In this document: positions 36,896 to 56,078 of the stretch, one piece after another
How positions within the stretch are numbered: position 1 is the stretch's first letter
Layout of the letters: every line of letters starts with the position of its first letter
Assembly (NCBI GenBank): GCA_020353515.1
Contig: CP070695.1
Coordinates: 3,456,050-3,520,049, forward strand
Reading direction: 5' to 3'
Origin: Candidatus Heimdallarchaeota archaeon
Lineage (GTDB): Archaea; Asgardarchaeota; Heimdallarchaeia; Hodarchaeales; Hodarchaeaceae
Length of the DNA stretch: 64,000 nt
Program-made: the position numbers and the translations under genes
Notes under the pieces: model-generated
Told to the model about the DNA's origin: nothing
The model's input: only the letters and a program-made list of their open reading frames with translations
Databases searched by the model: none

Positions 36896-39484
36896 ATGAA
36901 CCAGTTATATTCTAGTTTGAAGCCATATTATGAAAAATTTCTTATCAGGGGTAAATCTTATGGATTATCCTCTCATGAAATTCATGAAATGGCGCTAAAC
37001 CTGTTTATAAAACTTCTGGGTGTTATTATTCTCATATCATGTAATGGTAAGACTGAGGAAAACGGGAACTCTTTGATCAATTTACAAAAAACTAGAAAGT
37101 CAATTCATGAAATCTTATTTCAAAATGATTTACTAACTTCACAACTATTCCCAAATGGAATTCCTCCTATTTTGAATGAATTGCTTGAATTATCTCATCA
37201 AGAGATCCAATTCAAGGATTCTTTATCACCTAAAGAATGGGATACACTCATCGAGCTACTGTTAAAGCAACAATGGACTTTTGCTGAAGATTTTGATGAT
37301 ATTGTGAAAGAAACTCCAAATTCTCCAGGATTTTTATCATATTTTTATGAAAATGTTCTAAATGATTTTGAGAATTTTTTTCGTTTAACTCCTAAAATTT
37401 CTAAAAGGAAACATAAAGGGGTCTTTTATACTCCATGGCGAATAATTCGTGAAATTACTGATAAATGTCTCGATCACCATGTTACAATTAACTCTCATTC
37501 AAAAACAACCAAGAAACTAAGTCTGAAAATATTGGATCCGAGTTGCGGGACTGGTTCTTTTCTTGTCTACACTGCTGAAAGTATTTTTCGACGTCTATGT
37601 AATAGGAAAGAATCGTACAAAATTCATCCACATATGATTGTAAATAGAAATATATATGGTATTGATCTTTCTCAAAGCAGTTTAACTGTTGCCAAATTCC
37701 GACTATTATTTTGGATCCTAAATTTAAATTTAAATTCTATTGATTCACTTCCCACATGGTTGTTTAGAAATATTTGTGTTGGTAACAGTCTATTTGGTCT
37801 TTATAAAGAAAGAATTCAATATCCTTTGGATTATTCAACAGCTTTGAAGCGAATTAATAGATTTCTAGATTTTAAAAAACAACAGGACTTGGTTTTGAAA
37901 GAGAATTGGCTAGAGACAAGTTTTCAGGTAAAAGAGGCAAGAAAAAAGCCTCATTTAAAGAATTCACACCAAAAAGCAATTCAGAGAGCAGAGAAAAATC
38001 TTCTGCGTCTTGTAAATACTTTTTATCAGAATTGGTTGAGAAAACGCCTATATAACTATCCACGTCCAGCACCAATAAAAATGAAAGATTTAGAAATAGT
38101 TACTCCATTCCATTGGAGCATAGCTTTTCCTGAAGTGGTTCTTAAAGGTGGGTTTGATGTAGTAATAGGAAATCCTCCCTATGGAAGGTCAATTCTTAAC
38201 AAAATTGAGAAATCCATGCTTAAATTAATATATAAAGCATGTTCAGGTAAGAATCCAAAAAAATATAGCCTAAATGCCGCTAGTGCTTTCATTGAAAGGT
38301 CAATTACTGTTTTAAAACAAAACGGAACACTTGGTTTGATTGTGCCTTTTTCCATTCTGCGAGTTGAGGAATTCGAAACACTTCGGGAATTCATGTTAGA
38401 AAGAACTATGATCTGGAAAATTAATGATGAATCAGCAGCGTTCGCTGATGTTACTCTGGAAATGTGTTCCATATTCTTGACTAAAAGAGTTGAATCTGAT
38501 TATGAAGTTTCCATAAGTCCTCGACCGAATATTCATGCAGAATCGGCCGTTCCGATTAGTATTTTTAAAAAATATAATCGTTTCATGATCTATTATAACA
38601 AGTTATGGGACAAAACTGTAGGTCAAGGATTAGTCCTAGATGGTGTTGTTAGTGGTGATTACGGAATTGATCATCGAATTCTAAAAAAAGATTTGAGTTC
38701 AGAATTTTCTGATAAATATCCAATATGTTATTTACACTCAGGACGGAGTGTTGCAAAATTCGCATTAAATCCTAAATATTTTCAATGGTCAAAACCTCAT
38801 CCTACAAATGAGAGATTTTCTATTTATTTTCGAGAACCTCGACTTGTTAACACTGCTATTGGTAATCGATTCCGGGTTGCTTATAAACCAGAAAAAATTG
38901 TACCTGGTACTAATGTTTCAATTCTAGAAATTAATCCTTCATACCACTATTTCCCCATGTTAATTTTATTAAACTCTGATCTCATTAATTATCTTTTAAA
39001 GAGATATATTCTCAATTTTAGTCATTTAACGGTTTACCTTCACAAATATTATACTAAATTGATTCCTATCAAGTATCCACATGATTTTGAACAAGAATTT
39101 TCAACACTTGCTAGTTATCTCCTTTTTCTGAATCAGGCATACCTTTGTGGAAAACTAGCTCAGGATAAGCGAACAGATTATTTACTTAATTTAGCGAATT
39201 ATTTAGTTTATGATTTGTATTTTCCAGAAATTTTAGGGATTTCATCAAATTTAGCTGTTAATGTGGGAAAATACTTGAAATCTATAGATATAGAGTCCTT
39301 TCTGGATCTGATACTTTTTCAGGAATCTGAAACCGATCGGGAACGCTTATCATTAGTCATTTCTTCCAATTGGCAGATTATACAAAAGGTTACTAATCAA
39401 TTACGAAGAGATGAAGAAATACGTAAGCACAAAAAGACAATATTTAACCACAAAATTGTAAGACGTATATCTAAAGAGCTCTAA
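36896..39484 (+). CDS. Eco57I/TaqI-like DNA amino-methyltransferase, large
   Basis: RKHKGVFYTP, ILDPSCGTGSFL, NIYGID, FHWSIAFPEV, GGFDVVIGNPPY, LILLNS. Confidence 0.9.
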   Translation: MNQLYSSLKPYYEKFLIRGKSYGLSSHEIHEMALNLFIKLLGVIILISCNGKTEENGNSLINLQKTRKSIHEILFQNDLLTSQLFPNGIPPILNELLELSHQEIQFKDSLSPKEWDTLIELLLKQQWTFAEDFDDIVKETPNSPGFLSYFYENVLNDFENFFRLTPKISKRKHKGVFYTPWRIIREITDKCLDHHVTINSHSKTTKKLSLKILDPSCGTGSFLVYTAESIFRRLCNRKESYKIHPHMIVNRNIYGIDLSQSSLTVAKFRLLFWILNLNLNSIDSLPTWLFRNICVGNSLFGLYKERIQYPLDYSTALKRINRFLDFKKQQDLVLKENWLETSFQVKEARKKPHLKNSHQKAIQRAEKNLLRLVNTFYQNWLRKRLYNYPRPAPIKMKDLEIVTPFHWSIAFPEVVLKGGFDVVIGNPPYGRSILNKIEKSMLKLIYKACSGKNPKKYSLNAASAFIERSITVLKQNGTLGLIVPFSILRVEEFETLREFMLERTMIWKINDESAAFADVTLEMCSIFLTKRVESDYEVSISPRPNIHAESAVPISIFKKYNRFMIYYNKLWDKTVGQGLVLDGVVSGDYGIDHRILKKDLSSEFSDKYPICYLHSGRSVAKFALNPKYFQWSKPHPTNERFSIYFREPRLVNTAIGNRFRVAYKPEKIVPGTNVSILEINPSYHYFPMLILLNSDLINYLLKRYILNFSHLTVYLHKYYTKLIPIKYPHDFEQEFSTLASYLLFLNQAYLCGKLAQDKRTDYLLNLANYLVYDLYFPEILGISSNLAVNVGKYLKSIDIESFLDLILFQESETDRERLSLVISSNWQIIQKVTNQLRRDEEIRKHKKTIFNHKIVRRISKEL

Positions 39485-40750: not shown

Positions 40751-41854
40751 ATGATGGAAAATGTAACCAGAGTTTTCTTAATAGATGATTCAGCGATTGT
40801 ACGTCAACAGATCTCACAAATGATCATGAATAGTGAGAAAAATATCATAGTTGTAGGTACCGCAATGAATGGGCGAATAGCACTAGAAAAAATGATACTA
40901 CCAAGAAATAAAGCTGATGTTGTAATAATAGATGTTGTTATGCCTGAGATGGATGGAATAGAGACTATTAATCATATTATGGATCGGTTTCCCACTCCTG
41001 TTATTGTTATCTCTGCTTTGAAAAAGAAAAAGGAGATTGATGTTGCACTATCGGAACTTGGAGTAGCTGCTTTTGAATCTGGCACTGTAGAGTTTGTTAG
41101 AAAACCAGACCCTTGGATTCCTAATGATAAAGAACGATTTAAAAATGAATTAATCCTTAAGATTGAAAACCTAGCAAAAATTGATTTCTTAAAAATTTTC
41201 TCAATTTTCAACATAGAATCCTTAGTAAAAGAAGAAGCGATAGCAAAACCTTTAATAAAGGAACCTTCACAAGTCATTTTAAATAGACATCGTGCTAAGA
41301 TAATCGTTATTGGAGCTTCGACGGGGGGTCCTCGTGCAATTTCGATGATATTTTCTATGTTACCCAATAATTTCCCTCCAATTCTTGTTATTCAACATAT
41401 GCCAATAGGTATGGTTAAACCGTGGGTAACCAGATTGAAAAAGATGTACTCAAATTTAATGATTGAAGTCGCGAATAATGGAGTATTACTAAGACCAAAT
41501 CATATTTATATCGCTCCTTCGGGAAAACACTGTCTAGTTAATCACAATAAAAGAATAAAACTTGAATCTGGAGAAAAAGTGAATTTTGTTATTCCTTCAG
41601 CTGATGTCACCTTTAAATCAGTTGCAGAAGTTTTTGGGAAGGATTCACTTGGGATTATACTTACAGGTATGGGGCAAGATGGCTGTCGAGGAGCACGTAT
41701 TATCAAAGATTCAGGTGGCAAAATAATAGCTGAGGATGAATCCACTAGTATAATTCCTTCAATGCCAAAGGCTGTAATTGAAGGGGAGCTTGCAGATAGA
41801 ATTTCACCTTTGCACAAAATCCCAACATCAATCAGAGGATTAGGTTGGATCTAA
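40751..41854 (+). CDS. cheB: Chemotaxis methylesterase CheB (REC plus methylesterase), paralogue 1
   Basis: IDDS, DVVMPEMDG, GASTGGP, IQHMP, ILTGMGQDG. Confidence 0.93.
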   Translation: MMENVTRVFLIDDSAIVRQQISQMIMNSEKNIIVVGTAMNGRIALEKMILPRNKADVVIIDVVMPEMDGIETINHIMDRFPTPVIVISALKKKKEIDVALSELGVAAFESGTVEFVRKPDPWIPNDKERFKNELILKIENLAKIDFLKIFSIFNIESLVKEEAIAKPLIKEPSQVILNRHRAKIIVIGASTGGPRAISMIFSMLPNNFPPILVIQHMPIGMVKPWVTRLKKMYSNLMIEVANNGVLLRPNHIYIAPSGKHCLVNHNKRIKLESGEKVNFVIPSADVTFKSVAEVFGKDSLGIILTGMGQDGCRGARIIKDSGGKIIAEDESTSIIPSMPKAVIEGELADRISPLHKIPTSIRGLGWI

Positions 41855-41869
41855 GTGGAATTTTTTCTT

Positions 41870-43054
41870 CTAATTTTTTCGTTGGTATATCCTATTGTGA
41901 GCATTAATGACTTCAAACTTATCTTTAACTTCCGAAGGAAGGAGCTCACACTTCCCAAGCACTAGGAATCCACGGGTTTTTAGAACGGAATGAAATCGTT
42001 GAAAAAGTGAAATACTTTGAGGTTTTGAAAAATATATCAGAACATTTCTACACATAATTAAATCGAAATCTTTAGCTGGAGGAGGAGTTCGGAGATCATG
42101 TCTTTTAAAGGTTACTAAGTTTTTAATTTGAGGAGATAGTTCATACTCATCTTGATTTATAAGTCTAAAGAAATTTCGAATTACTGATGGATTCATTTCA
42201 TCGAAATAATCTTTTGTGTACTGTGCTTCTTTAGCTTGCGATAAAAAATCTTGTGAAATATCCGTCGCAAGAATGTGAATATTTTTCTCCTTTGATTTCC
42301 TGTTTTGCTTTTTAATCATGATAGCAATACTATAAGGTTCTGGACCGATAGCACAACCCGCACTCCAAATCCGAACTTTTTTAGTTCTATTCAAAATATG
42401 AGGTAGAATTTCATTCTCTAGAACATCAAAAAGTTCTTTGTCGCGAAAAAATCGAGTTACGTTGACTGATAAACAATCAACAAGTACATTAAGTTCATTT
42501 GGATTATGCTCTAAAAATTTCCGATAATCAAAATAAGATGGTGTTTTTACCTTCCTCATGCGAAAATGCAATCGTCTTAGAAAATAGTTTTCTTTATATG
42601 CTTGATAATTAATTTTCTTCTTTGAAAGGAAATCCATTACCAATGGAAGATGTTGTTGGTCAGTAGGGTCTTTAACCTTAAAAATTACTTGTATTTTTTT
42701 CAGATCTATCCTTTTACGTCTTTTTTTCTTTTTTTCTTTTTCTGAAGTCACATTAACGAAGTTATTAAGGCTTTTTCTTTGTCTTTTAGGATGTAAAGGT
42801 GAAAGGTGGTGTTTATGTTCCCCCTCCAACATTGAAAATAATTTTTCAGAGGATTCCTGATTCTTTTCGACGTGTTCAAGTAGTTCAGTATAGCTCTTAA
42901 AACCCAGTTCTCTTTTCAACCGTAACAGTCTTTTCTTGATTTTTCCCTCATCCCAAAGCGCATCACCAGTGTTTTGCATAACGAATTTGATAAGATCCTC
43001 GAATCCTTCATCTGATTCTAAACTTATCTGGAACTTCTTATAATCGTTTTGCAT
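41870..43054 (-). CDS. cheR: Chemotaxis methyltransferase CheR with N-terminal extension
   Basis: NVTRFFRD, RIWSAGCAIGPEPYSIA, ILATDIS, FDLIMCRNVLIYF. Confidence 0.95.
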   Translation of the reverse strand: MQNDYKKFQISLESDEGFEDLIKFVMQNTGDALWDEGKIKKRLLRLKRELGFKSYTELLEHVEKNQESSEKLFSMLEGEHKHHLSPLHPKRQRKSLNNFVNVTSEKEKKKKRRKRIDLKKIQVIFKVKDPTDQQHLPLVMDFLSKKKINYQAYKENYFLRRLHFRMRKVKTPSYFDYRKFLEHNPNELNVLVDCLSVNVTRFFRDKELFDVLENEILPHILNRTKKVRIWSAGCAIGPEPYSIAIMIKKQNRKSKEKNIHILATDISQDFLSQAKEAQYTKDYFDEMNPSVIRNFFRLINQDEYELSPQIKNLVTFKRHDLRTPPPAKDFDLIMCRNVLIYFSKPQSISLFQRFHSVLKTRGFLVLGKCELLPSEVKDKFEVINAHNRIYQRKN

Positions 43055-43210
43055 TATGTCATTTCCTTGGCTTCTTGATTTCTTAGAGATTTACTCTGAA
43101 GTACATCCAAAAACCGGATTTAAACACTACTAAAAAAAAAATTGAAGTAGGAAAAATAATATAATGGCTTAGACCAGTCTTTTTTTTAAATTTCAACTCA
43201 TTTAAGGCCT

Positions 43211-43864
43211 TTATATTATTGAGCTTTCTTCACCAAACAGAGATTTCATGAATTCTTCAAATGTCTCTAAGTGGGGGACAATAGCTAAATCTACAGCGAT
43301 ATTTCTCTCAGAAGTAAATACATCACATTCGATAAACAAGACTGATTTCACATTCTTTCGAATATCATCTAATTCATGTTCGGCACAAGATACCAAGGTA
43401 CCAATACGAAGTTTAGGCGGTGAGGGGAAAGAATTCGCTTTTAGAAAATAATTTAGAGCTTCAATATATTTTAATGAGAGTATAGAACCAGTCTCTTTGA
43501 TTAATGAGCGAAATAATGGAGGTAATCCTCTAATATCGTGAATCTCGTCTGTTTGTTGAGAAGTCATTAGATCTATAATTTTTTTAACGCTTTCCCAGTC
43601 AAAAAAGACTAAGATGGTGTATAATAGATCACTAACAGTAACAGAAGATATTATTGCTAATTCTTGATCGATTGGCATTCCTATAATCCCAGGGATATCT
43701 TGTAATTGTTTTAGAGCTACTTTAGGAATACTCATATATGTTGACCGATTTAGAAATTGAGTCAGGGCAATTGCTGCGTGCCCTGCGCCTATGTTTCCAA
43801 CTTCTTGAAGAGCATCAAGGTGAAAATCTGATAATTTCTCCATTTGAAAATCTGTATCATGCAT
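43211..43864 (-). CDS. cheC: CheY-P phosphatase CheC
   Basis: DALQEVGNIGAGHAAIAL; second site reads SLIKETGSIL; overlaps the cheA stop. Confidence 0.9.
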   Translation of the reverse strand: MHDTDFQMEKLSDFHLDALQEVGNIGAGHAAIALTQFLNRSTYMSIPKVALKQLQDIPGIIGMPIDQELAIISSVTVSDLLYTILVFFDWESVKKIIDLMTSQQTDEIHDIRGLPPLFRSLIKETGSILSLKYIEALNYFLKANSFPSPPKLRIGTLVSCAEHELDDIRKNVKSVLFIECDVFTSERNIAVDLAIVPHLETFEEFMKSLFGEESSII

Positions 43865-45746
43865 GTACTTTTGCCTCCAAGAAATTCATTGGATCGATTA
43901 TTAACACTACTTTGCCTCCTTCTAACACGGTTGCACTTGAGAACGCGCCTATTTGGCTGAGGAAGTTTTGAATGGGTTTCATAACTACTTCACGTTCTCC
44001 CAATAATTCATTTACTAGGAATCCTAAACTACGATTCCCTTTTCGCCATAGAACCACTATTTCTTTCTGTACATCTTTATGACCAGTTTCAATTTCAGAC
44101 TCAATTTGTAATGAATGAAACTTCAAACGTTCACGTAAGTCAATGATAGGAACTGATGTGTTATCAACAATAATGGATTTTGAGGTGGTTTCTGGATCAA
44201 TTAGAATTTTACGAACTGGAACAGAAAGGATTTGTTCAATATTGGCCATAGGGATTGCAAATTGATACTTTTTAACTGATAACATCAATACTTTTGTAAT
44301 AGCTACTGATAATGGTATAACGAGTCGGAAGGAGGTAAATTTTCCTGGTTCCGAATCAACCTCAATATTTCCACCAACAGACTCCATAGTGGATTTTACA
44401 ACACTGAGTCCAACTCCTCTACCAGAAATTTCAGTCGTTTCTTCTGCAGTTGTGAAACTACTGTCAAATAATAGTGAATGTAAATCGTTTTTTGTCAATA
44501 TAGCTCCTGGAATAACTAATCCTTTCTTTTCTGCTTTTTCACGAATTTTCTCATAATCAATTCCACGACCATTGTCTCGCACTTCGATGATTATATCAGA
44601 ACGTTCATGAGTCACTGTAAGCTTTATCATTCCCATTGGTTCCTTATTCTTTTTGACTCTTTCTTCAGGTATTTCTATCCCATGACTGAGTGCATTTCTA
44701 AGCAAATGGTTAAGTGGATCAACTAGTTTCTCAATCACTGAGCGATCAACTCCAATATTTCTCCCAGTAACAATGAAATCGACATGTTTTCCTTCTTTTT
44801 GGCTTAAATCACGAATCATTCGTGGGTAGCGTGTGAGTATTGTCTCTAAAGGAACCAAACGCATTCTTATAACGAGGTCTTGGATGTTAGCTATTGTTCT
44901 TTCAAAGTTAGATAAGTTCTCCTTAAATGACCTAGAGTAGGCTTGTTGCTCCCCAATCTCTCTGATGAATTGACCAGAAACCACCAGATCACCTAATAAC
45001 CTTATAATGTGATCCAAGTCTTCAAGATTGACTCTGACAGTTAGTGCTTCTTGAGATTCTTCTATCCCTCCAGATTTTTCAGTAGTTGTAACTGATTCTA
45101 AAATACGTGATACATTGACAGAAACAACATCAGGCGCTTCTTCGACGATCTGATTAATAACCTCTTCATCTTCTTGTGTAGTTATCTCAATAATTAATTC
45201 TTTAAATGAAGCTCCTGCTTCAATTTCTTCAAGGGGAGGTATAGTACTATTTACACTTGACTTTTCCTGGAGCTTTTTGACAAGAACTAGACTCCTAGCA
45301 CTGACTACTTTACAATCTGGACTGTAAAAAACCCTAATTTGAAGTTTACTCCCCAAATTTATCATGAATTCATCAATCGAAGCCATTTGCTGGGTCAATT
45401 CATCAAAGTGGAGAGCTTCGGGAGTTTTCCCACCTTTTAAGGATTTAGAAAATCTCTCTAGTTCATCGACATATGTAAACAACAGTTTTAATACGTTTGA
45501 AATATTTGTTTCCTCTGCATCAGTAACAAGATTTTCCATACTATGAGTAAGCGAACTAATCTTCGGATATCCTGATAAAGAGAAAAGACCCTTAAGATTA
45601 TGAAGCACTCTAAGTATAACTTCATATGCTTCTTTCTTTGTTGGATCCTTTTCAAGAACCAACAAACCTGAATTCAATTCCTCGATTCTTTCTGTTAGTT
45701 CGAGGATCATGACTTTTTTGAATTCTTCTGATTCAAATTCACTCAA
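43857..45746 (-). CDS. cheA: Chemotaxis histidine kinase CheA
   Basis: Hpt HNLKG, P2, dimerisation domain, HLLRNALSHGIE, DNGRGID, SGRGVGL, C-terminal CheW-like P5. Confidence 0.96.
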   Translation of the reverse strand: MSEFESEEFKKVMILELTERIEELNSGLLVLEKDPTKKEAYEVILRVLHNLKGLFSLSGYPKISSLTHSMENLVTDAEETNISNVLKLLFTYVDELERFSKSLKGGKTPEALHFDELTQQMASIDEFMINLGSKLQIRVFYSPDCKVVSARSLVLVKKLQEKSSVNSTIPPLEEIEAGASFKELIIEITTQEDEEVINQIVEEAPDVVSVNVSRILESVTTTEKSGGIEESQEALTVRVNLEDLDHIIRLLGDLVVSGQFIREIGEQQAYSRSFKENLSNFERTIANIQDLVIRMRLVPLETILTRYPRMIRDLSQKEGKHVDFIVTGRNIGVDRSVIEKLVDPLNHLLRNALSHGIEIPEERVKKNKEPMGMIKLTVTHERSDIIIEVRDNGRGIDYEKIREKAEKKGLVIPGAILTKNDLHSLLFDSSFTTAEETTEISGRGVGLSVVKSTMESVGGNIEVDSEPGKFTSFRLVIPLSVAITKVLMLSVKKYQFAIPMANIEQILSVPVRKILIDPETTSKSIIVDNTSVPIIDLRERLKFHSLQIESEIETGHKDVQKEIVVLWRKGNRSLGFLVNELLGEREVVMKPIQNFLSQIGAFSSATVLEGGKVVLIIDPMNFLEAKVHA

Positions 45747-45809
45747 TTATTCCACGACCTCATTCAAAAAATCTACTGGTCAATAAATGCTGGGAAATTC
45801 CCAGAATAC

Positions 45810-46169
45810 CTAATTTAGCGCTCCTTCAATTGCTTGGACTAATTGGTCAACTTTGAATGGTTTAATAACAAAGTCCTTTGCACCAATTTTCAAAGCTTGT
45901 CGGACAAGGGGTTCATGTCCTAGCGCAGTTACTATTACGATTCTTGCCTCTGGATCCATTTCCATGATTTCTTTGACAGCCATTAACCCATTCATCTTTG
46001 GCATAACAACGTCCATTGTCACGACATTTGGCATGAATTGCTTGTAATGGTCAATAGCTTCGATCCCTGTTTCTGCCTCTGCAACAACTGTATGACCGTG
46101 CTTTTTCAGTATTTTTCGAATCATCAACCGTAGATATTTCGAATCATCTACAATCAATACTTTTGCCAT
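45810..46169 (-). CDS. cheY: Chemotaxis response regulator CheY
   Basis: VLIVDDS, TMDVVMP, VTALG, FVIKPF; stand-alone receiver next to cheA. Confidence 0.93.
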   Translation of the reverse strand: MAKVLIVDDSKYLRLMIRKILKKHGHTVVAEAETGIEAIDHYKQFMPNVVTMDVVMPKMNGLMAVKEIMEMDPEARIVIVTALGHEPLVRQALKIGAKDFVIKPFKVDQLVQAIEGALN

Positions 46170-46175
46170 AGTTAT

Positions 46176-49100
46176 TCAATCCTTTTCTTTTCTTTGTTCT
46201 TTTTTCATCCTTTTTAGTAGTGTTTTAATATTCTTTTTTGATATTATCTCTTCTAGAAACTCATTTTCAATAACATGTATTGTAGATAAGATTTTTTCGT
46301 AAGAAAATACATGTTTACAAGTTTTTTTACCCTCCAAAAAGATATTTGAGTCCTCACAAGGAATTAACTCTTCTTTGAACTTTGTTATTACACCTTCGAT
46401 ATCATCTGCAGGAACTAAGAATGAGAGATTCTCAAACTCTAGTAAAAAGAGAAAGCTGTTGTCTTGATACTCTGTCTGATTCTGAGAGTTAAAGACTAAC
46501 GCTGATAAATCAATGACAGGAAGTGTGCTATTGTTTTCCTCAGCAATACCGATTATTGGAAAAAACGTAGTATCTATCTTTTTCCAATTTAATGAACTTA
46601 AAACTCTTCTAACGAAAGTAACGTCAATTGAGAGGGTATAATGTTGTAATTTAAAAACAAAATAGTCTAAACGAATACCTTCGTGCCTATAGAATAACAG
46701 TAATTCGAGATCTTTGCGCTTAGATTTAACTTCCTCAAGAAATTTAACCTCTTTAGGAAGAAGGGTTGAAGAAAATTCTTTTGTATCTTTTAATGATAAT
46801 GTATTCTGAAGAACTGCTCTAATTTTCATATATAGAGAATCTGGATTCATTATCATACCAAGTGCACCGTTGTATGAAAAAAATCCAGAAATGATTGGTG
46901 AAAGGGTATTTCTTGAAAGCCCTAAACTGTTTTGGTAGATTTCACAATTTTCAATTGTAATTTTATCCAAAATGTTATCGACTAGGAGAACAGCTTCTGT
47001 ATTACTCTTAGGGTCATTTATTAGAATTCCAACTGATTTTTTCGCATTGTTACCATTCTTTTCTCTTAAAATAGTGTTGAAATCAATAAGTGGAACAATA
47101 TTAGTATGTATAGTTGCCCCTTTGATTGCATCATGGGGAAACTCTTTGAATAAAAAGGAGTTCTCCTCAATGACTTGGATAACATTTTGGGAATTTAGCA
47201 AGAAGATATGTCCTTTATCCTCAAATAAGTATCCTTCTTGTATTATATCATAACTTTGATGGATGGATTCTTGAACAGGATTCTTGAAGTATAGGATCTG
47301 GTCACTTTCTTGTTCTAATAAAATAGGATTATTAGCTATATGGAATAGATATTCAGCATTTAATATCAAAATAATCTGTTCTGATGGAGTAAGCATTAAA
47401 CCTTGTATGATATGGAGTGGAAAATCTCCCTCAGCCGATGAAAGGATAGGTCGAAGAGAATTCTCATCGATTTCGATTATTGATAGAATTTTATCGGTAA
47501 AGAGAGCGATATGTTGATCTTTAACCTCAAGGATCAGAACCTCATTTGAAGTCAGAGGTGTGGGTGTTGAATTCGATTTTAGTACCTCAGCTAAATTCAG
47601 GACAGAGATCACGCTTCCCCTGTAATTTGTTGATCCAATAATTGCTTTAGGCGCGTTAGGTACCTTTGTAGTGCTAGTAATATTGAAGATCTCACTAATA
47701 TATATGTTTGGAACCAAGATGTTTAAATTTCCAACTGAAACCAGTGTTCCTTTGTGTTTAAGATTGTGAGAAGAACTTACAACTTGTTTTGGTTTTAATT
47801 CTATAATTGACCTCTGAACTGGGATATTTTGTTTGAGATTAATATTTAATTCTTCAGAAGTGTCAAGTGACTTAAATGGAACTAAAAGAGTCTGATTTTC
47901 CACAGTAAATTGGGTTTGCATTTGTTCAAGTTCATAAACGATCCGATTGAGAATTTCTTGGTGGTCAAGCTGGACTACTATTTGATCATTGTATAGAAAT
48001 GCACCTGGAAAAAATGAGACTTCATTAGTATTTGTCGAATTGACTAAACTAGTTAATTCTGATTCTTCAGGTTTACTGATGGATCCTAAGACCGACTCAA
48101 CCTGAAAAATTATAAACTTCCCCTTATTCTCCCCTACAATGTAATTTTTCGGCTTTTGGATCTGTTTCGTTGTTGAACTCAATAGTTCACCATAGAAGAA
48201 AGAGTGCAAATCGATAACTGGAACAATTTCGCCACGAAAAGTGGTAGAACCCACGAAATAAGGAGCACTATTAGCGATTGGTGTGATTGTCAATGTTTGT
48301 AGGATCTCGATCACACAAGAGCACTTTATCGCATAAATGATATCCAATAATGTGATTAACACAAGAGCATTTTCATCCAAAGATGATTGCTTAATAGCTC
48401 TCGACTTCAAGATGTCTTCAGCATTGTAGATAGTAAAGAAGATTACTGGTTTTTCATAGTTAATTACAGAAAGATCAGAAATAGCCTGAAAAAAATAGTT
48501 GACATTTAAGACTAATATAATGTTTCCTGAGCGGTCTAACATGACCCCTTGGAAATAATACGTGAGATCCTTCTCTTTCGTAGGCCCAACAGCAGGATGT
48601 AGATCAGTTTCGATCATTTCTACTATTTCATGGAACTCATCAACAATGATGGCAACCTGTTGGTCTATGGATTCAAGAATGATTGCTTGAACATCATCTT
48701 GTTTTCTTACTATTTTCTTCCTTTCACTAGAGGAAGGTACTAATATTTCAGTAAGATCTAAAACACTAATGACTTTACCACGGAAATTAATTGTACCTAC
48801 AACAGCTTTTGGTGCATTTGGTACCTTGGTAACGCTTTGAACATTAAAAATCTCTATTATACGATTGTTTGGGATTAGTATGTCTAGTTCCTGAACCGAA
48901 ACCAATGTTGCAGTATTTGTGGTTTTTTTGGTATCCTTCAAGGCTCTTTGGAAACCTCTATCTGTCGCACTTGGTACTGGTACAGAAAGTTTTTGACGGA
49001 GATCGATATTATATTCTTCAGGAACCCCTAGTAGCTCAATGGGAACTAAGAGAGCTTGGTTTTCAATCACAAACTGAGTTTGTGTATTCTCAAGGTCGTA

Positions 49101-49628
49101 AACAACTCGCTCTAGGATTTGGTTATCGTCTAATAAGACAATAATCTGATCTATATTAGAAAGAAATGCCTTAACAAAATAAGAATTCTCTTCCGGATTA
49201 GCAAAATTCACTAAATTTGTTACTTCTGATTCTTCAGGTTTCTTTATAGAACCTAGAACAGTTTCAACCTGAAAAATAACAATTTTCCCCGTATGTTCTA
49301 GTGCAATGTAATTATTTTGATTTTCGGAACGTCTTGTTGACAAATTTAGTAATCCCCCATAAAAGAAGGACTGTAAATCAATGACTGGAACAATCTCACC
49401 ACGAAAAGTAGTAGAACCAACAAAATAGGGAACACTATTAGCCACTGGTGTGATTGGTAGTGTTTGAAGGATTTGGATTACAGATGAACTAAAAAGTGCA
49501 TAGTTGTTATCAAGTAAGGTGAAAAGGAGGAGATTATCTTCTTGTTGATTCCTTGAAGTTTTCTTGATTTTTTTTGTTTTTAAAATTATCTTCACCCCTT
49601 TGTGATATTTTCCTTCTATACTACTCAT
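46176..49628 (-). CDS. cheW: Multi-CheW protein with six CheW domains
   Basis: Four clear CheW units (FRGEIVPVIDL twice, FRGKVISVLDL, YRGSVISVLNL) and two divergent units (IVPLIDF, TLPVIDL). Confidence 0.85.
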   Translation of the reverse strand: MSSIEGKYHKGVKIILKTKKIKKTSRNQQEDNLLLFTLLDNNYALFSSSVIQILQTLPITPVANSVPYFVGSTTFRGEIVPVIDLQSFFYGGLLNLSTRRSENQNNYIALEHTGKIVIFQVETVLGSIKKPEESEVTNLVNFANPEENSYFVKAFLSNIDQIIVLLDDNQILERVVYDLENTQTQFVIENQALLVPIELLGVPEEYNIDLRQKLSVPVPSATDRGFQRALKDTKKTTNTATLVSVQELDILIPNNRIIEIFNVQSVTKVPNAPKAVVGTINFRGKVISVLDLTEILVPSSSERKKIVRKQDDVQAIILESIDQQVAIIVDEFHEIVEMIETDLHPAVGPTKEKDLTYYFQGVMLDRSGNIILVLNVNYFFQAISDLSVINYEKPVIFFTIYNAEDILKSRAIKQSSLDENALVLITLLDIIYAIKCSCVIEILQTLTITPIANSAPYFVGSTTFRGEIVPVIDLHSFFYGELLSSTTKQIQKPKNYIVGENKGKFIIFQVESVLGSISKPEESELTSLVNSTNTNEVSFFPGAFLYNDQIVVQLDHQEILNRIVYELEQMQTQFTVENQTLLVPFKSLDTSEELNINLKQNIPVQRSIIELKPKQVVSSSHNLKHKGTLVSVGNLNILVPNIYISEIFNITSTTKVPNAPKAIIGSTNYRGSVISVLNLAEVLKSNSTPTPLTSNEVLILEVKDQHIALFTDKILSIIEIDENSLRPILSSAEGDFPLHIIQGLMLTPSEQIILILNAEYLFHIANNPILLEQESDQILYFKNPVQESIHQSYDIIQEGYLFEDKGHIFLLNSQNVIQVIEENSFLFKEFPHDAIKGATIHTNIVPLIDFNTILREKNGNNAKKSVGILINDPKSNTEAVLLVDNILDKITIENCEIYQNSLGLSRNTLSPIISGFFSYNGALGMIMNPDSLYMKIRAVLQNTLSLKDTKEFSSTLLPKEVKFLEEVKSKRKDLELLLFYRHEGIRLDYFVFKLQHYTLSIDVTFVRRVLSSLNWKKIDTTFFPIIGIAEENNSTLPVIDLSALVFNSQNQTEYQDNSFLFLLEFENLSFLVPADDIEGVITKFKEELIPCEDSNIFLEGKKTCKHVFSYEKILSTIHVIENEFLEEIISKKNIKTLLKRMKKEQRKEKD
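47290..49540 (-). repeat. Intragenic tandem duplication of about 1.17 kb (CheW domains 1+2 duplicated as 3+4)
   Basis: Near-identical DNA ccacgaaaagt.gtagaacc.ac.aaata.gg..cactattagc at about 48232 and about 49400; boundaries approximate. Confidence 0.75.
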
Positions 49629-49646
49629 GGGTTTCTTTATCTATTC

Positions 49647-50549
49647 TTATTCATTCTCTTCGCTTTTGTTTCCTTTTTTGGATTTCTTGGTCACTTTAGC
49701 CTTTTCTGTCCCTTTTGTTTCCTCTTTTCCTTTTGATTTATCCCCTTCTCTGGAATCTTTTTCGATTTTGGCCTCATCTTTCTTTTTAGTTAACTTTTTG
49801 GTCTTTTTTACTTTCTTTGTTTCAGAATTGTCTTTTGATAAGTTTTCATCACCTCCCTTGGTATCAGCATCAACCTTATTAAGAAGCCTTTGATCAAATT
49901 CATCAGTTTGAAGATTATCTGGTAGATTTAGTTGATCCATATCAAAATTGGCTGATTTATCTGATGAGGATTTCTCTGATGCTTCATCGGGATCAGGTAA
50001 GGTGTATTGATCAAAATCAAAATCGAAATCTTCATCACTAGTCATTTTTCTTCCCGAAGTTTTTGAAGTAACAAAATCTCCTAAGAGTCCCTCTAAATCT
50101 AAAATGAAAATAGTCTGCCCATTTTTTAGTAATCCAATTTTAGAAACTAGAGATGGATTTAACAATTCTTTTCCTTGGAAATATGAATTATTTGCTGATT
50201 TAAATTCTGTAATTGTATCTAATTGATGGATCTGATCTACTAAAATACCAATATCTTGGTCTTTAATTGTTACCAATAAAATAACATTAGAATTAGTATT
50301 ACTTGATATTTCATCCTTTTCACGAGAGTCTTTTCCCCAAAGGAGTACAGAGAGGTTAAATATACTAACAATATATCCACGTAGATTAACGATTCCTTCC
50401 AAGACTGAGGAAGTTCTAGGCAGCTTCAAAATATTCCTAGTTTGGAATACTTCCTTAAGATAATGTACTTCAATGCCATAAAGATCATTAGAAATTCGAA
50501 ATATAAGATGTCTATTTTTCACTTTTTCAGCTTGCATTACTGTTGTCAT
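49647..50549 (-). CDS. cheW: CheW with a long acidic then Lys-rich C-terminal tail
   Basis: LIFRI..DLYGI, GIVNLRGYIVSIFNL, IGILVDQI; about 140-aa low-complexity tail. Confidence 0.9.
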   Translation of the reverse strand: MTTVMQAEKVKNRHLIFRISNDLYGIEVHYLKEVFQTRNILKLPRTSSVLEGIVNLRGYIVSIFNLSVLLWGKDSREKDEISSNTNSNVILLVTIKDQDIGILVDQIHQLDTITEFKSANNSYFQGKELLNPSLVSKIGLLKNGQTIFILDLEGLLGDFVTSKTSGRKMTSDEDFDFDFDQYTLPDPDEASEKSSSDKSANFDMDQLNLPDNLQTDEFDQRLLNKVDADTKGGDENLSKDNSETKKVKKTKKLTKKKDEAKIEKDSREGDKSKGKEETKGTEKAKVTKKSKKGNKSEENE

Positions 50550-50557
50550 TCCTTAAA

Positions 50558-51301
50558 TCACCTTTTTGTATCAGTAAATCTTGAAAAGATAGAAAAGAAA
50601 TTCCTTAACTCAGTTGATTTTTCTTTTTTGATCTCCTGAGTAGTTCCTGAATATTCTGACTTGAGATATGTCGAGTCGGTTTCTTCCATGGCAAAAAGCT
50701 CCTTTTCAACCATCGCGTCTAGATCTATATCTTCCTCTTCTTCGTATTCATAAAATTGGGTTGTTGTTTCTAAAACAACGTTATCTATAATCTGGCCTAA
50801 TTCAGGGAAAATTGACATGTTTGGCCCATCCAAAGTTTTGTCACTAACAACGATATTAACCGAATCGAGAGGAGAATTAGACTCATACACAGGTACCGAG
50901 AGCATCATATGAATGGTTTCAAATATACGAGAAGAAAGTTCATTTACAATCTCAACAGATTTCATTGATGTTACACTGTCTAGGGGAAAATTACCAATTG
51001 TCAACAAGCAGGCTAAGTCTTTCTGACTTCTAACGAATATTCTGGTGCCTTCCCGTGTGCCAATATCATTTAACTCCATATTATTTCCTATCATTTCTCC
51101 AAATTGAACAATAGCGGCCATCAAACCAGCAATCAGTGTTGGATCTTTACCAGAAGTCTTTTTATAAACCCTGGAGAAAATAGGAAGACCACTACTCTTA
51201 TTTAGAAGTAAAATTTCATGTACAGATACCTTGACGTCCGCTTCCTCCGTTTGCTTATCATTTACATCCCCAAGTAATTTTTCGGCTGATATTTTTTTCA
51301 C
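50558..51301 (-). CDS. Longin-domain protein, first gene of the che operon
   Basis: VHEILLLNKSSGLPIFSRVY....DPTLIAGLMAAIVQFGEMI...LNDI....TRIFVR...LACLL, a classic longin pattern; 8 nt from the cheW start. Confidence 0.75.
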   Translation of the reverse strand: MKKISAEKLLGDVNDKQTEEADVKVSVHEILLLNKSSGLPIFSRVYKKTSGKDPTLIAGLMAAIVQFGEMIGNNMELNDIGTREGTRIFVRSQKDLACLLTIGNFPLDSVTSMKSVEIVNELSSRIFETIHMMLSVPVYESNSPLDSVNIVVSDKTLDGPNMSIFPELGQIIDNVVLETTTQFYEYEEEEDIDLDAMVEKELFAMEETDSTYLKSEYSGTTQEIKKEKSTELRNFFSIFSRFTDTKR

Positions 51302-51706
51302 CGCGACATTATTTCATCTTGGATTGTAGATATTTATATTTAATCGATTGTAATCTAGATTTAGTGGTTTAATTGTCTAGTTTTATCTATTTATTCAGGA
51401 TAGAAAACACCTATTGTAAATTTTACAACAAAATTTCTTCTCACATAGGTTTTTTATATATATAAACTATAAAGGTATTTGATAATGCTTGTACAATAAT
51501 ATGAATTGTATTACTATATAAAAACATTCACAAATAATCCTTACTCCATTTATTAGAACGAGTCACTAAAAATATCGATAAATACTGAAAATTAAAATTA
51601 AATTGACAATGTTTGAATAATTAAGATTAAAATTCACTCCATATATAACAAAAAGAAACTACATCCTTCTGTGGTTAATTTATAGTTTAGTTAGGAAGTT
51701 TTAAGC

Positions 51707-52801
51707 TTAAATCCAACCATGTTTGTGAATTAATATCGGGATTTTATGTAATGGTATGATTTCATCAGCATATTTTCCTTCGATAATCGCTTTTGGCATG
51801 GATGGAATAACACAGGTAGATTCATGCTCAGCAAATATTTTTCCCCCGACAGACTTAATCTTCTCTGCACCTAAAAATCCATCTTTTCCCATCCCAGTAA
51901 GAACAATACCAAGAACATTTTTTTTATATACCCTAGCAGCATCAACAAAAGTAACATCAATAGCAGGTATGACAAAATTTATCCTTTCATCAATGAATAG
52001 ACGAAAGGTCTTATCTCTATTAATACCACAATGTTTTCCACCAGGGGCTATATAGACACGATTTGGTAAGATTTTTTCTTTATTATTTGGAATTTTGATA
52101 ATAAGATGAGGATATAAACTCTGTAATCTTTTCACCCAAGGATCTACCATTTGTTCTGGCATATGTTGTACTACTATAATTGGTGGAGATTTGACTGGAA
52201 TTTTTGAAAGTATTAACGAAATTGCACGAGGACCCCCCGTCGAAGCTCCTATTACTAATAATAAATCACTAAATTGTTCTGATATTACTTCAGACTTTGC
52301 TTCTACAGTAGGTTTTGTTTCTTCTTCTTGTAAAAAAGTTTTGAAATCAAAACCTGCATAGGCACGAGCTAAATCTATTTGAGAAAGGTTAGAAATTTTG
52401 TAGAATAATTCTCTTTTAAACCGATTAACATCATTTAGAACCATTGGATCTGGTTTTTTAACAAATTCTACTCCACCAGACTCAAAAACTGACATACCTA
52501 TGTTAGAAAGAGAACGATTCACTTCTCTTTTTGATAGGCCAGAAATCATGATTACTGGAGTAGGAAATCGATCCATAATGTGCTTAATGGTCTCGAAACC
52601 GTCCATTTCAGGCATTATAGCATCAACAAGTACAACATCAGGGGAATATTTGGGTAAAGCCATTTTCATTAAAGCTATTTTACCATTTGGAGCTCCCCCG
52701 ATGACTTCTATGTTTCTTTGACTATCAATGATCATTTTGGTTATTTGATGTCTAATAACTGCTGAATCATCGATTAAAAAGACCTTTATTACTCCTTTCA
52801 T
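51707..52801 (-). CDS. cheB: Chemotaxis methylesterase CheB, paralogue 2
   Basis: IDDS, DAIMPEMDG, GASTGGP, VQHMP, VLTGMGKDG; colinear with 40751..41854. Confidence 0.93.
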   Translation of the reverse strand: MKGVIKVFLIDDSAVIRHQITKMIIDSQRNIEVIGGAPNGKIALMKMALPKYSPDVVLVDAIMPEMDGFETIKHIMDRFPTPVIMISGLSKREVNRSLSNIGMSVFESGGVEFVKKPDPMVLNDVNRFKRELFYKISNLSQIDLARAYAGFDFKTFLQEEETKPTVEAKSEVISEQFSDLLLVIGASTGGPRAISLILSKIPVKSPPIIVVQHMPEQMVDPWVKRLQSLYPHLIIKIPNNKEKILPNRVYIAPGGKHCGINRDKTFRLFIDERINFVIPAIDVTFVDAARVYKKNVLGIVLTGMGKDGFLGAEKIKSVGGKIFAEHESTCVIPSMPKAIIEGKYADEIIPLHKIPILIHKHGWI

Positions 52802-53717: not shown

Positions 53718-56078
53718 CTATTTTTTTCTAGTTTTTTCTTTTGCAAATCGCCAATATAATTCGAACTGTAAAATTTCGTGAATTTTTGTTACATCTCTAG
53801 AGTTCATTCCTAGACACTCTATAAGAACAAGATGATCAAGTTGGTTCACAAATTTTGAATAATCTGAAATTAATTTTTTTGTTGTAAGGATTGATTCTAT
53901 TTTTGTTTCTTTATGACTAGAAATACAAGCTTGAAATTGATTAATATGGTTTTTAGAAAGTTTTCTGGGATTTAATACCAGTAAATTTTGACATTCTTGC
54001 AGGGAGAGTTTAAGCGACCCAAGTCCGAGGGTTCTTGTACCCTGTATTTCCCTAAGTAATATCCCTAGAGTTGAATTTAAGAAACCAAGAAGAGGAAATA
54101 ACCAATCCTTGTTGTTTGCCCAAAAACCAATCCATTGCTTATCAATATGGAGTTCATCAGAATTATAGATAACAAAAGATCGTTTAAAACTCATATTCGG
54201 TATTAATATCTCTGGTTGTATTAATGGTACCTGATACCAATTCTCCTTTGTTCTATTCTTAAAATATGGACGTTTTAATATGTCATCCTGATTTTTATTG
54301 ATATAATCTTGTAGTTCATTTGGACTATCTTCTGTAAGTTTTCTAGGAATGTGAAGGAAATATCCTAATTCTTTGGATGGAGAGAAGATTGTACCCCATT
54401 CTTTAGGGGATTTTGTCATAAGATATAGGTTCTCTTTTGGAAAGTTAAATTGCTTCTTCAATTTCTTGGTAAAGTAAAAAAACCGATTAGCTCCCGTGGT
54501 TGATCCCATTTCTAGCTTTCCAAGATCTTTTAACAAACAAAATTGATCTTTTTTATCTTTTAGTAGTTTTATAAGATAAGAAGACATTGTAAGATAATCT
54601 AATCTTAAAAAAGGAAAAAGTTTCCTTGAATTCATCATTAAAGGAGTTAAATCAGAAATTAGAGAAATTCTATATAAATCAGTTTCCTTTGTTTGTATCT
54701 CAAATCGGATATTAGCAGGCTTAAAAGAAAGCTTTTCTAAATCCTTTGTGAAATTATGTATCCCAAACTGTAATAAAGACTTTAGAGAGTTTTTCCATAC
54801 AATTATGGTTGTATTTTTAAGTTCAGCTTTTTTATGAATCCTGTGTCCGATAACAATATGAGTTCGAATTTCTGCATTATCCCAAACTTCAAACGGTAAC
54901 TCTAAAATGAGATCTAAACAAAAAGATGTTAGAAAGATTTGTTTAAGTGGATTTGTATATCGAGAAGACAACCAAGCTCGAGATAAGACAAATGCGATTG
55001 TACCTCCTCCAACAACTTGCGTAATAGCTTTTAACCAAAAATAGATATATAAGTCTGCTTTTTTATCCCATTTGAGTGATATTTCTGAAAATAAATATTT
55101 GAAAAACTTTGAAATATCCTTTGTAGTTTTAATAGAAGTATTTTTAATTCCATGATGTCGAACATAAGGAGGATTTCCAATTATAATGTGAAATTTGTGA
55201 TGAGAGGATTTATCATCACTAAGAAAATCAGTTTCGAAGATTTGGAATTTTTTGATTAAAGAATTCAGTTTTTTTTCTGAAAATGTCTCGTTTGGAATAT
55301 ATTTCAGATATTGGTGTAGGAGTATAATCTTAGCACACTTGACAATACGAGAGTCAATATCATATCCATAAAGGCGTGAGAATAAAGTATTCATAATTTC
55401 TATCTTTTCTTCTGGTGATATATTAACATTTATTGGATTAGCAAGTATAATGGATAATAGGAGTCTACTCATTTCTGCAAGAAACATTCCTGTTCCACAG
55501 CTTGGATCTAAAATCCTAATACTCGCTATTCTATCAACAATTTGATAATTATCTATGAACTGATAATTTACAGGATATTTACCTCTAAAACTGAGTTCGT
55601 GAAGAGATTTATCATCTAGAGCAATATCCTTTCTGTTACTGAGAAATGAAAACAAAGCATAACGACATATTACCTTAATTTGATTCAAGGGAGTAAAAAA
55701 TATTCCAGATTTTTTTCGTTCATTTGGTTTTCTCAGATTTTCATGAAAATTTGAAAAGATATAAGGCTCAAGATGGTTCTTGTCGTCCTCAATTCTCTTT
55801 AAAAAAATCCACCACCAATCATCCTGATTTAAATAGCTTAGAAATGATTCATTCATTCGAAACTCAAAATAATGTTTAAGCCATTTTATTTCCCAATAAT
55901 TTGATCTTTTAGCTAACTGGACTAGATAAGTTTCTTTGTCTACGAAAAGGAACTGATTTAAACTTGGAAACAGAAATAAAATACTAAATGTTAGGCTGAA
56001 AAAGTTATATAACTCTGGCCATTTATGAGATTCTTTTGTTATATGCTTTAAACATTTAGTCCACTCATTCACTATCAT
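53718..56078 (-). CDS. Eco57I-like DNA amino-methyltransferase
   Basis: RKKSGIFFTP, ILDPSCGTGMFL, LYGYDID, IIGNPPYVRH, ADLYIYF, LGFLNS. Confidence 0.9.
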   Translation of the reverse strand: MIVNEWTKCLKHITKESHKWPELYNFFSLTFSILFLFPSLNQFLFVDKETYLVQLAKRSNYWEIKWLKHYFEFRMNESFLSYLNQDDWWWIFLKRIEDDKNHLEPYIFSNFHENLRKPNERKKSGIFFTPLNQIKVICRYALFSFLSNRKDIALDDKSLHELSFRGKYPVNYQFIDNYQIVDRIASIRILDPSCGTGMFLAEMSRLLLSIILANPINVNISPEEKIEIMNTLFSRLYGYDIDSRIVKCAKIILLHQYLKYIPNETFSEKKLNSLIKKFQIFETDFLSDDKSSHHKFHIIIGNPPYVRHHGIKNTSIKTTKDISKFFKYLFSEISLKWDKKADLYIYFWLKAITQVVGGGTIAFVLSRAWLSSRYTNPLKQIFLTSFCLDLILELPFEVWDNAEIRTHIVIGHRIHKKAELKNTTIIVWKNSLKSLLQFGIHNFTKDLEKLSFKPANIRFEIQTKETDLYRISLISDLTPLMMNSRKLFPFLRLDYLTMSSYLIKLLKDKKDQFCLLKDLGKLEMGSTTGANRFFYFTKKLKKQFNFPKENLYLMTKSPKEWGTIFSPSKELGYFLHIPRKLTEDSPNELQDYINKNQDDILKRPYFKNRTKENWYQVPLIQPEILIPNMSFKRSFVIYNSDELHIDKQWIGFWANNKDWLFPLLGFLNSTLGILLREIQGTRTLGLGSLKLSLQECQNLLVLNPRKLSKNHINQFQACISSHKETKIESILTTKKLISDYSKFVNQLDHLVLIECLGMNSRDVTKIHEILQFELYWRFAKEKTRKK

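Follow-up and report, generated by a model that had tools for sequence, protein, structure and literature searches.

Background

In chemosensory systems the receptors control CheA, CheA phosphorylates CheY, and CheC/CheD together with CheR/CheB reset the signalling. Such a system can work without a rotary-motor output, as does Frz of Myxococcus, and its operon can carry accessory genes, as in Vibrio, where ParC and ParP tether the arrays to a cell site. The receptors usual for archaeal F1 systems are of the 44H class (PMC6943060), which is dominant among archaea (PMC9680633). For Asgard archaea, passages of an earlier study report che genes in 27 of 97 Loki and Heimdall genomes and putative arrays of 'Ca. 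Lokiarchaeum ossiferum' seen by tomography (PMC9834061), and CheF homologues have been reported in some genomes (PMC13705601). The study of crawling in Lokiarchaeia and Hodarchaeales does not mention chemotaxis (PMC13716822). About one fifth of Asgard genomes carry cheA and almost none carry CheF, which raises the question of what their chemosensory systems control, the more so since actin-based crawling of these two groups was recently filmed. The present analysis concerns a cluster of che genes in a window of 64,000 nucleotides (nt), positions 3,456,050 to 3,520,049 of contig CP070695.1 from a Candidatus Heimdallarchaeota archaeon of the order Hodarchaeales (GCA_020353515.1), and in particular the gene at window positions 50558..51301 (minus strand), which has a GTG start, stands directly before cheW and encodes a longin-fold protein of 247 amino acids (aa). 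The cluster is the core of the single chemosensory system of this genome. In three families the longin subfamily goes together with chemosensory genes, and the longin is probably an accessory component that is dedicated to Asgard chemosensory systems and associated with the membrane.

Linkage of the longin gene to che genes

Among 400 Asgard genomes, true orthologues of the longin (E below 1e-80) were restricted to this genus, where they were present in 11 of the 12 genomes that carry this CheA and in none of the 10 that do not; in the lone genome with this CheA but without an orthologue the contig ends inside the multi-CheW gene. The initial annotation had made its proposal of a chemosensory longin depend on the fold of the protein and on conserved adjacency to cheW, and both are found. 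Nine of the 12 copies lie directly before cheW and one stands ahead of cheB-cheW, whereas the other two have left the cluster in company with a second longin of 352 aa. The arrangements around the retained longin are three, cheB-longin-cheW, cheB-MCP-longin-cheW (MCP, methyl-accepting chemotaxis protein, that is, a receptor) and longin-cheB-cheW. On the RpoA1 tree the presence of the longin is patchy, with 6-7 changes, and this scatter suggests repeated joint loss of longin and che genes, although linkage and gaps in metagenome-assembled genomes could produce it too. When independent pairs of genomes were compared, 4-5 of 5 agreed on longin and CheA presence, with p of 0.06-0.125, the lowest that five pairs can give. 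In a crude comparison of identities, with partial sequences included, longin distances followed those of CheA (rho 0.54) but not those of RpoA1 (rho 0.13), and this comparison was not used as evidence.

The 352-aa longin (G000:C1:3295296-3296354; L097:1501-2559) is a candidate partner in that it lies near the che longin in 5 genomes, but its distribution differs. In three genomes it stands behind cheR, and in two others it forms a pair with the che longin without che genes; it also occurs in three che-less genomes and is missing from two che-positive ones, a distribution which speaks against an obligate partner or a che-specific gene. A receiver-like C-terminal alpha/beta part of this protein was not confirmed (HHalign against CheY, 0.6%).

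Outside the genus, 100 Asgard che loci were scanned with a purpose-built longin profile. A longin of 191-193 aa encoded after cheD in another family is near the window protein (HHalign 96%, E 4e-9); with the profile of that longin, the window protein comes out on top of the 43 longins of the genome. In two other families the closest relatives are encoded after cheD, after cheC, or between cheR and a receptor gene, and paralogues retrieved by sequence alone proved to sit between cheR and receptor. When 83 genomes of the class were searched prospectively with the subfamily profile, 10 new matches above 85 bits were obtained, all in one further family; every one of these has a Pfam-confirmed receptor gene within 0-3 genes, adjacent in 7 cases, and none of the next 10 matches has one. 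The best score in largely che-less families was about 57 bits.

Longins of other kinds are also found at Asgard che loci. A double longin of 270 aa, both halves of which fold as longins, lies directly before cheW in 38 Lokiarchaeia-type loci, 8 times with a receptor gene on its other side. Of the 46 genomes carrying its closest form 41 are cheA-positive, and weaker paralogues occur in che-less genomes as well. Orthology between it and the window longin is unsupported (HHalign 40% over 76 columns), and it falls outside the subfamily clade. Another Asgard genome has a 280-aa longin, outside the subfamily studied, followed by cheW and a shortened cheA (L068:8047-11420), and a 413-aa longin of yet another subfamily is encoded between two receptor genes (L053:12168-13409) in a cluster whose CheA is of the same type as that of the window. 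In most Loki che loci (for example L071:11387-14311) cheA is followed by two conserved non-Che genes of about 680 and 285 aa, and a small GTPase gene stands at the end of several of these clusters.

Fold of the longin protein

A clear longin signature had been read from the sequence in the initial annotation. The fold is borne out by a predicted structure, but the signature is weak: Fuz_longin_1 (PF19036) matches with E=0.059 and 14 bits against a gathering cut-off of 26.1, and it matches weakly in 7 of 46 homologues. The longin assignment rests on an AlphaFold2 model built from these 46 homologues, with a mean pLDDT of 58.9 and about 57-84 over the domain. In the model the topology beta-beta-alpha-beta-beta-beta-alpha-alpha is made up of E26-34, E40-45, H54-71, E77-79, E86-93, E96-103, H113-134 and H168-189, and the domain spans about aa 26-134 and 168-189. 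The best structural match (VIA) was sedlin/TRAPPC2, with a Z of 12.9 and a root-mean-square deviation (rmsd) of 3.2 over 133 aligned aa, whereas roadblocks scored a Z of at most 8.4. The top 30 VIA rows were all longin-containing chains, other TRAPP subunits, Vamp7, SRP receptor and CPLANE among them, and Foldseek matched zeta-COP, TRAPP and Fuzzy with E of 3e-5 to 1e-4. A PDB sequence search with the family profile returned chance IRAK4 matches alone.

The longin domain is followed by an acidic stretch, a conserved motif of the MEExDSTYL type (aa 205-219) and an amphipathic helix, in that order; T211, Y212, L213 and G219 are invariant in the alignment of the 46 homologues. The amphipathic C-terminus had been pointed out before and is confirmed. 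The helix, at about aa 233-243, has a hydrophobic moment of 0.81, which is the top window of the protein, and it ranks top in most homologues; a moment of at least 0.8 at the C-terminus is reached by 2.4% of the open reading frames (ORFs) of the genome with at least 150 aa. An EExxST string near aa 206 was considered as a mimic of a receptor-methylation site, but it matches half of the consensus and is not invariant, and the idea is weak at most.

The chemosensory core and its surroundings

As far as the sequences tell, the chemosensory core is complete, with intact active sites in CheA, CheY, CheC and both CheB proteins, and the earlier view of an Asgard chemosensory system is upheld by a complete pathway in a Hodarchaeales genome. 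All seven ORFs from longin to cheR were found again on the minus strand with the same coordinates and gaps, that is, 8, 18, 6 and 63 nt, an 8-nt overlap of cheA and cheC, and 156 nt between cheC and cheR, and Pfam agrees with the che assignments (CheW, CheW x6, receiver, CheA, CheC, CheR). That the longin heads the cluster holds in so far as it stands before cheW, but a cheB on the same strand 405 nt upstream had been missed. In fact, two intact cheB genes that were absent from the earlier list bracket the run. The upstream copy (51707..52801, minus strand; receiver and methylesterase, Pfam CheB_methylest 3e-48, catalytic motifs present) recurs at this place in 7 further loci of the genus, in one of them with an intervening receptor gene. 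The second copy (40751..41854, plus strand; Pfam, catalytic motifs present) converges on cheR with a 15-nt gap and is present in four relatives too. The AT-rich region of 405 nt between the upstream cheB and the longin gene (51302..51706, minus strand, 23% G+C) is likely to be the promoter region of the longin-cheC run, with two TATA-like strings, one about 170 nt and one about 230 nt upstream; a sigma-70 promoter and terminator scan, a method unsuited to archaea, gave matches at shuffle level.

All genes of the run downstream of the longin are likewise on the minus strand. The cheW gene (49647..50549; Pfam CheW 2e-19) encodes a long acidic tail with an acidic-aromatic motif of the DFDFDQYTLP type (aa about 170-185), which all of 13 homologues share, although two of these come from families that lack the longin orthologue; it is repeated in some and is a possible docking peptide. 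The multi-CheW protein of 1150 aa (46176..49628) has six tandem CheW domains, seen as six Pfam stretches, and 3-4 domains were detected in several relatives; a BLAST self-comparison gave no separate repeat. Size forms of about 750 aa (4 domains) and 1150 aa (6 domains) occur in the genus and in neighbouring families, and both are present in one metagenome-assembled genome (MAG). CheY (45810..46169) is a single-domain receiver by Pfam with an intact phosphorylation site (D8/D9/D53/T81/K103) and an identity of 77-100% within the genus. CheA (43857..45746), the sole one of the genome, has the Pfam architecture P1-P2-P3-P4-P5 (Hpt, P2, dimer, HATPase, CheW) without a receiver, and its His box and N/G boxes are intact; its best NCBIfam match is CheA_Halo, below the cut-off. 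The CheC phosphatase (43211..43864; Pfam) has its first ExxN motif intact, and in CheR (41870..43054; Pfam CheR 1e-55) the N-terminal all-alpha domain is duplicated (two CheR_N stretches).

Four Eco57I-type methyltransferase genes are present in the window (6732-9245, 33022-34611, 36896-39484 and 53718-56078). Two of them flank the che cluster, and the same flanks recur in several relatives. A bacterial-type poly(A) polymerase/CCA-adding protein (PF01743; 34785-36743), unusual in an archaeon, is kept beside the cluster in two relatives. In another protein (9573-11945) a receiver is joined to four PAS domains, and no output domain of the kinase or DNA-binding kind was seen at the E-value applied.

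Other pathway components and possible output genes

The genome is a single contig of 4.94 Mb, 96% complete with 7.4% contamination. Besides the cluster it has two intact receptors, two receptor fragments, a cheC-cheD pair, two more cheR genes and an orphan cheW, so that with CheA containing P2, CheW, CheY, CheB, CheR, CheC and CheD the whole archaeal F1 core gene set is present. The gene cheD, which directly follows cheC in several relatives, is unlinked to the cluster here; in the cheC-cheD pair (G000:C1:1214569-1215808) the first CheC motif is ELGK and not ExxN. The intact receptors (G000:C1:749119-751041 and 2495180-2496358) have intact methylation motifs, each has its own membrane-spanning input part, and their arms of about 100-109 aa correspond, by length alone, to 28-29 heptads, which places them outside the 44H class and is unusual among archaea. 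One receptor fragment (G000:C1:913736-915634) adjoins an ORF that looks like a transposase, and the other (G000:C1:2359618-2359860) is near a pilin gene and a roadblock-like gene.

The initial annotation had left room for an output other than an archaellum. CheF in forms detectable with PF04283, a limit that very divergent CheF would escape, was found neither in this genome nor in the 24 genomes of the order, with positive controls; it was found in 1 of the 400 Asgard genomes, 83 of which have cheA. This single match is a partial domain fused to leucine-rich repeats and followed by a small longin gene (L190:3803-5573). Archaellin (PF01917), the model of which is positive in another Asgard genome, was likewise found neither in this genome nor in the 24 of the order, and no ArlCDE was found in this genome with PF04659. 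CheF is missing from nearly all Asgard che systems, and because those without this longin also lack it, its absence does not mark the longin as a CheF substitute. The genome has a simple type IV pilus locus (G000:C1:1420603-1428506), 2 Mb from the cluster, with one ATPase, two platform genes and pilin-like genes. Further pilins with class III signal peptides are encoded at 1842073-1842924 and 2357812-2358231 of G000:C1, and the genome has three such pilins.

How the longin may act

We consider it likely that the longin protein works in the chemosensory pathway at all. Short methylatable receptors, encoded outside the cluster, would feed a core of CheW, multi-CheW, CheA and CheY. The longin would dock on the membrane through its C-terminal amphipathic helix, its conserved C-terminal helices would bind a core component, either CheY or the receptor-CheW baseplate, and its sheet would serve as a docking face for a non-Che partner; by this docking the array might be positioned or its signal passed on. 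We see about even chances for this adaptor form, in which the membrane-associated longin binds either CheY or the array and brings in a non-Che partner. A complex model of CheY with aa 20-247 of the longin scored 0.39 compared to 0.01 for the best of three controls, with at least 79% contact agreement between runs and a partner pLDDT of at least 62. The mark applied is passed by 58 of 80 solved pairs and by 2 of 110 mismatched pairs, and scores up to 0.60 at that mark come from just 7 of the 80 solved pairs, yet from both passing mismatches. The pass may also reflect model memory, because CheY-helix complexes have already been solved (CheF, PMC9126983). The model therefore lends weak support to CheY binding by the longin.

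Several observations weigh against a chemosensory role. The CheY-longin score lies in a range which the tool grades as wrong more often than right. One deletion or one missing MAG contig removes linked genes together and so co-loss is no proof of function, the longin is outside the cluster in 2 of the 12 copies, and the orthologue is missing from four genomes that belong to neighbouring families and share the CheA type (52-62% identity); in two of these four, receptor-cheW occupies the longin position. A neighbouring longin is also missing from several other Asgard che clusters, and because of these clusters and the sister genomes with the same CheA the longin is not essential. The support of the subfamily clade is moderate, 97/91 with 70 rows or 89/83 with 78 rows over about 130 columns, the clade includes 9 members for which no che neighbour was seen, and the 10 receptor-linked matches may stem from one ancestral locus.

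The most serious alternative, which we regard as rather improbable, is a hitch-hiking gene: a longin gene already resident in the ancestor of the genus would have come to lie at the che cluster in a single event and been carried along by proximity since, or, in a variant, an older pair of longin genes would have been split by the insertion of che genes. The genome is rich in such genes, with 43 longin ORFs among about 4,100 genes (about 1%), restriction-modification genes are abundant in the region, and the sister che systems without an orthologue and the distribution of the 352-aa longin described above are what such a history would leave. However, the che longin is retained in 0 of 10 che-less genomes, compared to 3 of 10 for the 352-aa longin, and its relatives stand beside che or receptor genes in four arrangements in three families; a rough and assumption-dependent estimate of the chance that adjacency is kept in 3 of about 10 CheA lineages is 0.001-0.1. 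The longin could also belong to the input side, as a soluble sensor, or a module that binds receptors, through which a metabolic signal would reach the array, comparable to the NPRL2-like longins fused to two-component domains that have been described in Asgard archaea (10.1101/2020.10.19.343400). A receptor gene is indeed the commonest neighbour of the wider subfamily, and in one Hodarchaeales locus and eight Loki loci a longin gene is flanked by receptor and cheW, but the two intact receptors already have membrane-spanning input parts and the invariant residues include the C-terminal motif outside the longin fold, and we hold such a role to be quite unlikely. An output through the simple type IV pilus, to which the longin would be either a link or irrelevant, appears very unlikely. 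The genome does have a single pilus ATPase of archaeal type, two platform genes and three pilins, but the pilus genes are far from the cluster, and none of the Hodarchaeales che clusters was seen to have a pilus gene next to it. The ATPase scores 431 bits, short of the 550 bits of the FlaI cut-off, and the search for ArlCDE found none.

The link to a GTPase or the cytoskeleton that the initial annotation had raised found no support, as a Ras-like gene adjoins just 1 of the 12 copies, although the genomes of this lineage have about 62 Ras-like genes each, and GTPase genes were without clear enrichment beside che genes (5 of 280 adjacent compared to 4 of 394 further off). In that one genome the Ras-like gene (L003:730-1272), which has a degenerate-looking P-loop, is directly upstream of the longin and replaces cheB. 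A relay from phosphorylated CheY (CheY-P) through the longin, acting like a guanine nucleotide exchange factor (GEF) or a GTPase-activating protein (GAP) on a small GTPase in control of membrane or actin dynamics such as crawling and protrusions, is unlikely in our judgement. It would agree with the TRAPP, CPLANE and Mon1-Ccz1 longins among the top structural matches, with the lack of detected CheF and archaellin, with the GTPase gene at the far end of several Loki clusters and, weakly, with the CheY-longin model. It also fits the crawling of Hodarchaeales and Lokiarchaeia, which use protrusions filled with actin, and the co-precipitation of an Arf GTPase with Lokiactin (PMC13716822). Longins that are not GEFs (Vamp7, Sec22, AP sigma subunits) match equally well, however, there is no conserved partner longin, and crawling L. 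ossiferum cells are mostly without a fixed direction (PMC13716822). Just as unlikely is the broader proposal that CheF-less Asgard archaea repeatedly recruited longins as membrane-bound CheY-P effectors, which would couple bacterial-type chemosensing to a small-GTPase or actin/membrane process such as protrusion crawling, with a dedicated chemosensory longin subfamily for it in Heimdallarchaeia. The more modest reading, a dedicated membrane-associated accessory, would, if true, give a pathway to one subfamily of the Asgard longins, most of which have no assigned partner, and it offers a small, soluble and expressible candidate component of Asgard chemosensing.

Comparison with known systems

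Asgard che genes, arrays, crawling and longin-two-component fusions have already been published, whereas a longin within che clusters seems not yet described; no description was found in a literature search that was thin on subscription papers. The Asgard che survey (PMC9834061) deals with che presence and absence alone, and its passages name neither longins in the clusters nor an output. With the single-domain longins of eukaryotes, that is, TRAPP sedlin/TRAPPC2, Tca17 and synbindin, CPLANE/Fuzzy, Mon1-Ccz1, Sec22/Vamp7 and AP sigma/zeta-COP, the window protein has the fold and strand order in common (Z 9-12.9). It differs from them in its identity of 8-20%, in a score below the Pfam cut-off and in its extra C-terminal motif and amphipathic helix, and it is encoded among chemosensory genes without a conserved partner longin or GTPase.

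The likeness to Frz with MglA/MglB is one of concept, namely no rotary-motor output and a protein with a profilin-like fold. However, MglB is a roadblock and the window protein a longin, the window CheA has no FrzE-type receiver, and no MglA-like gene is conserved in the cluster; a Frz/MglAB-type system is thereby ruled out. Compared to ParC/ParP the folds differ and the window's che cluster has no gene for a ParA-type ATPase. The closest described system is euryarchaeal F1 chemotaxis (CheA/W/Y/B/R/C/D, CheF, ArlCDE), which has the same core genes, a CheA with P2 and without a receiver, and CheC/CheD. The core of the Hodarchaeales system is F1-like, yet three defining F1 features, 44H receptors, CheF and an archaellum, are not seen in it, and it has in addition a protein with 4-6 CheW domains, two CheB, three CheR and a longin gene in the cluster. 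The CheF of F1 systems binds CheY via its C-terminal helices (PMC9126983), and the longin protein likewise ends in conserved helices.

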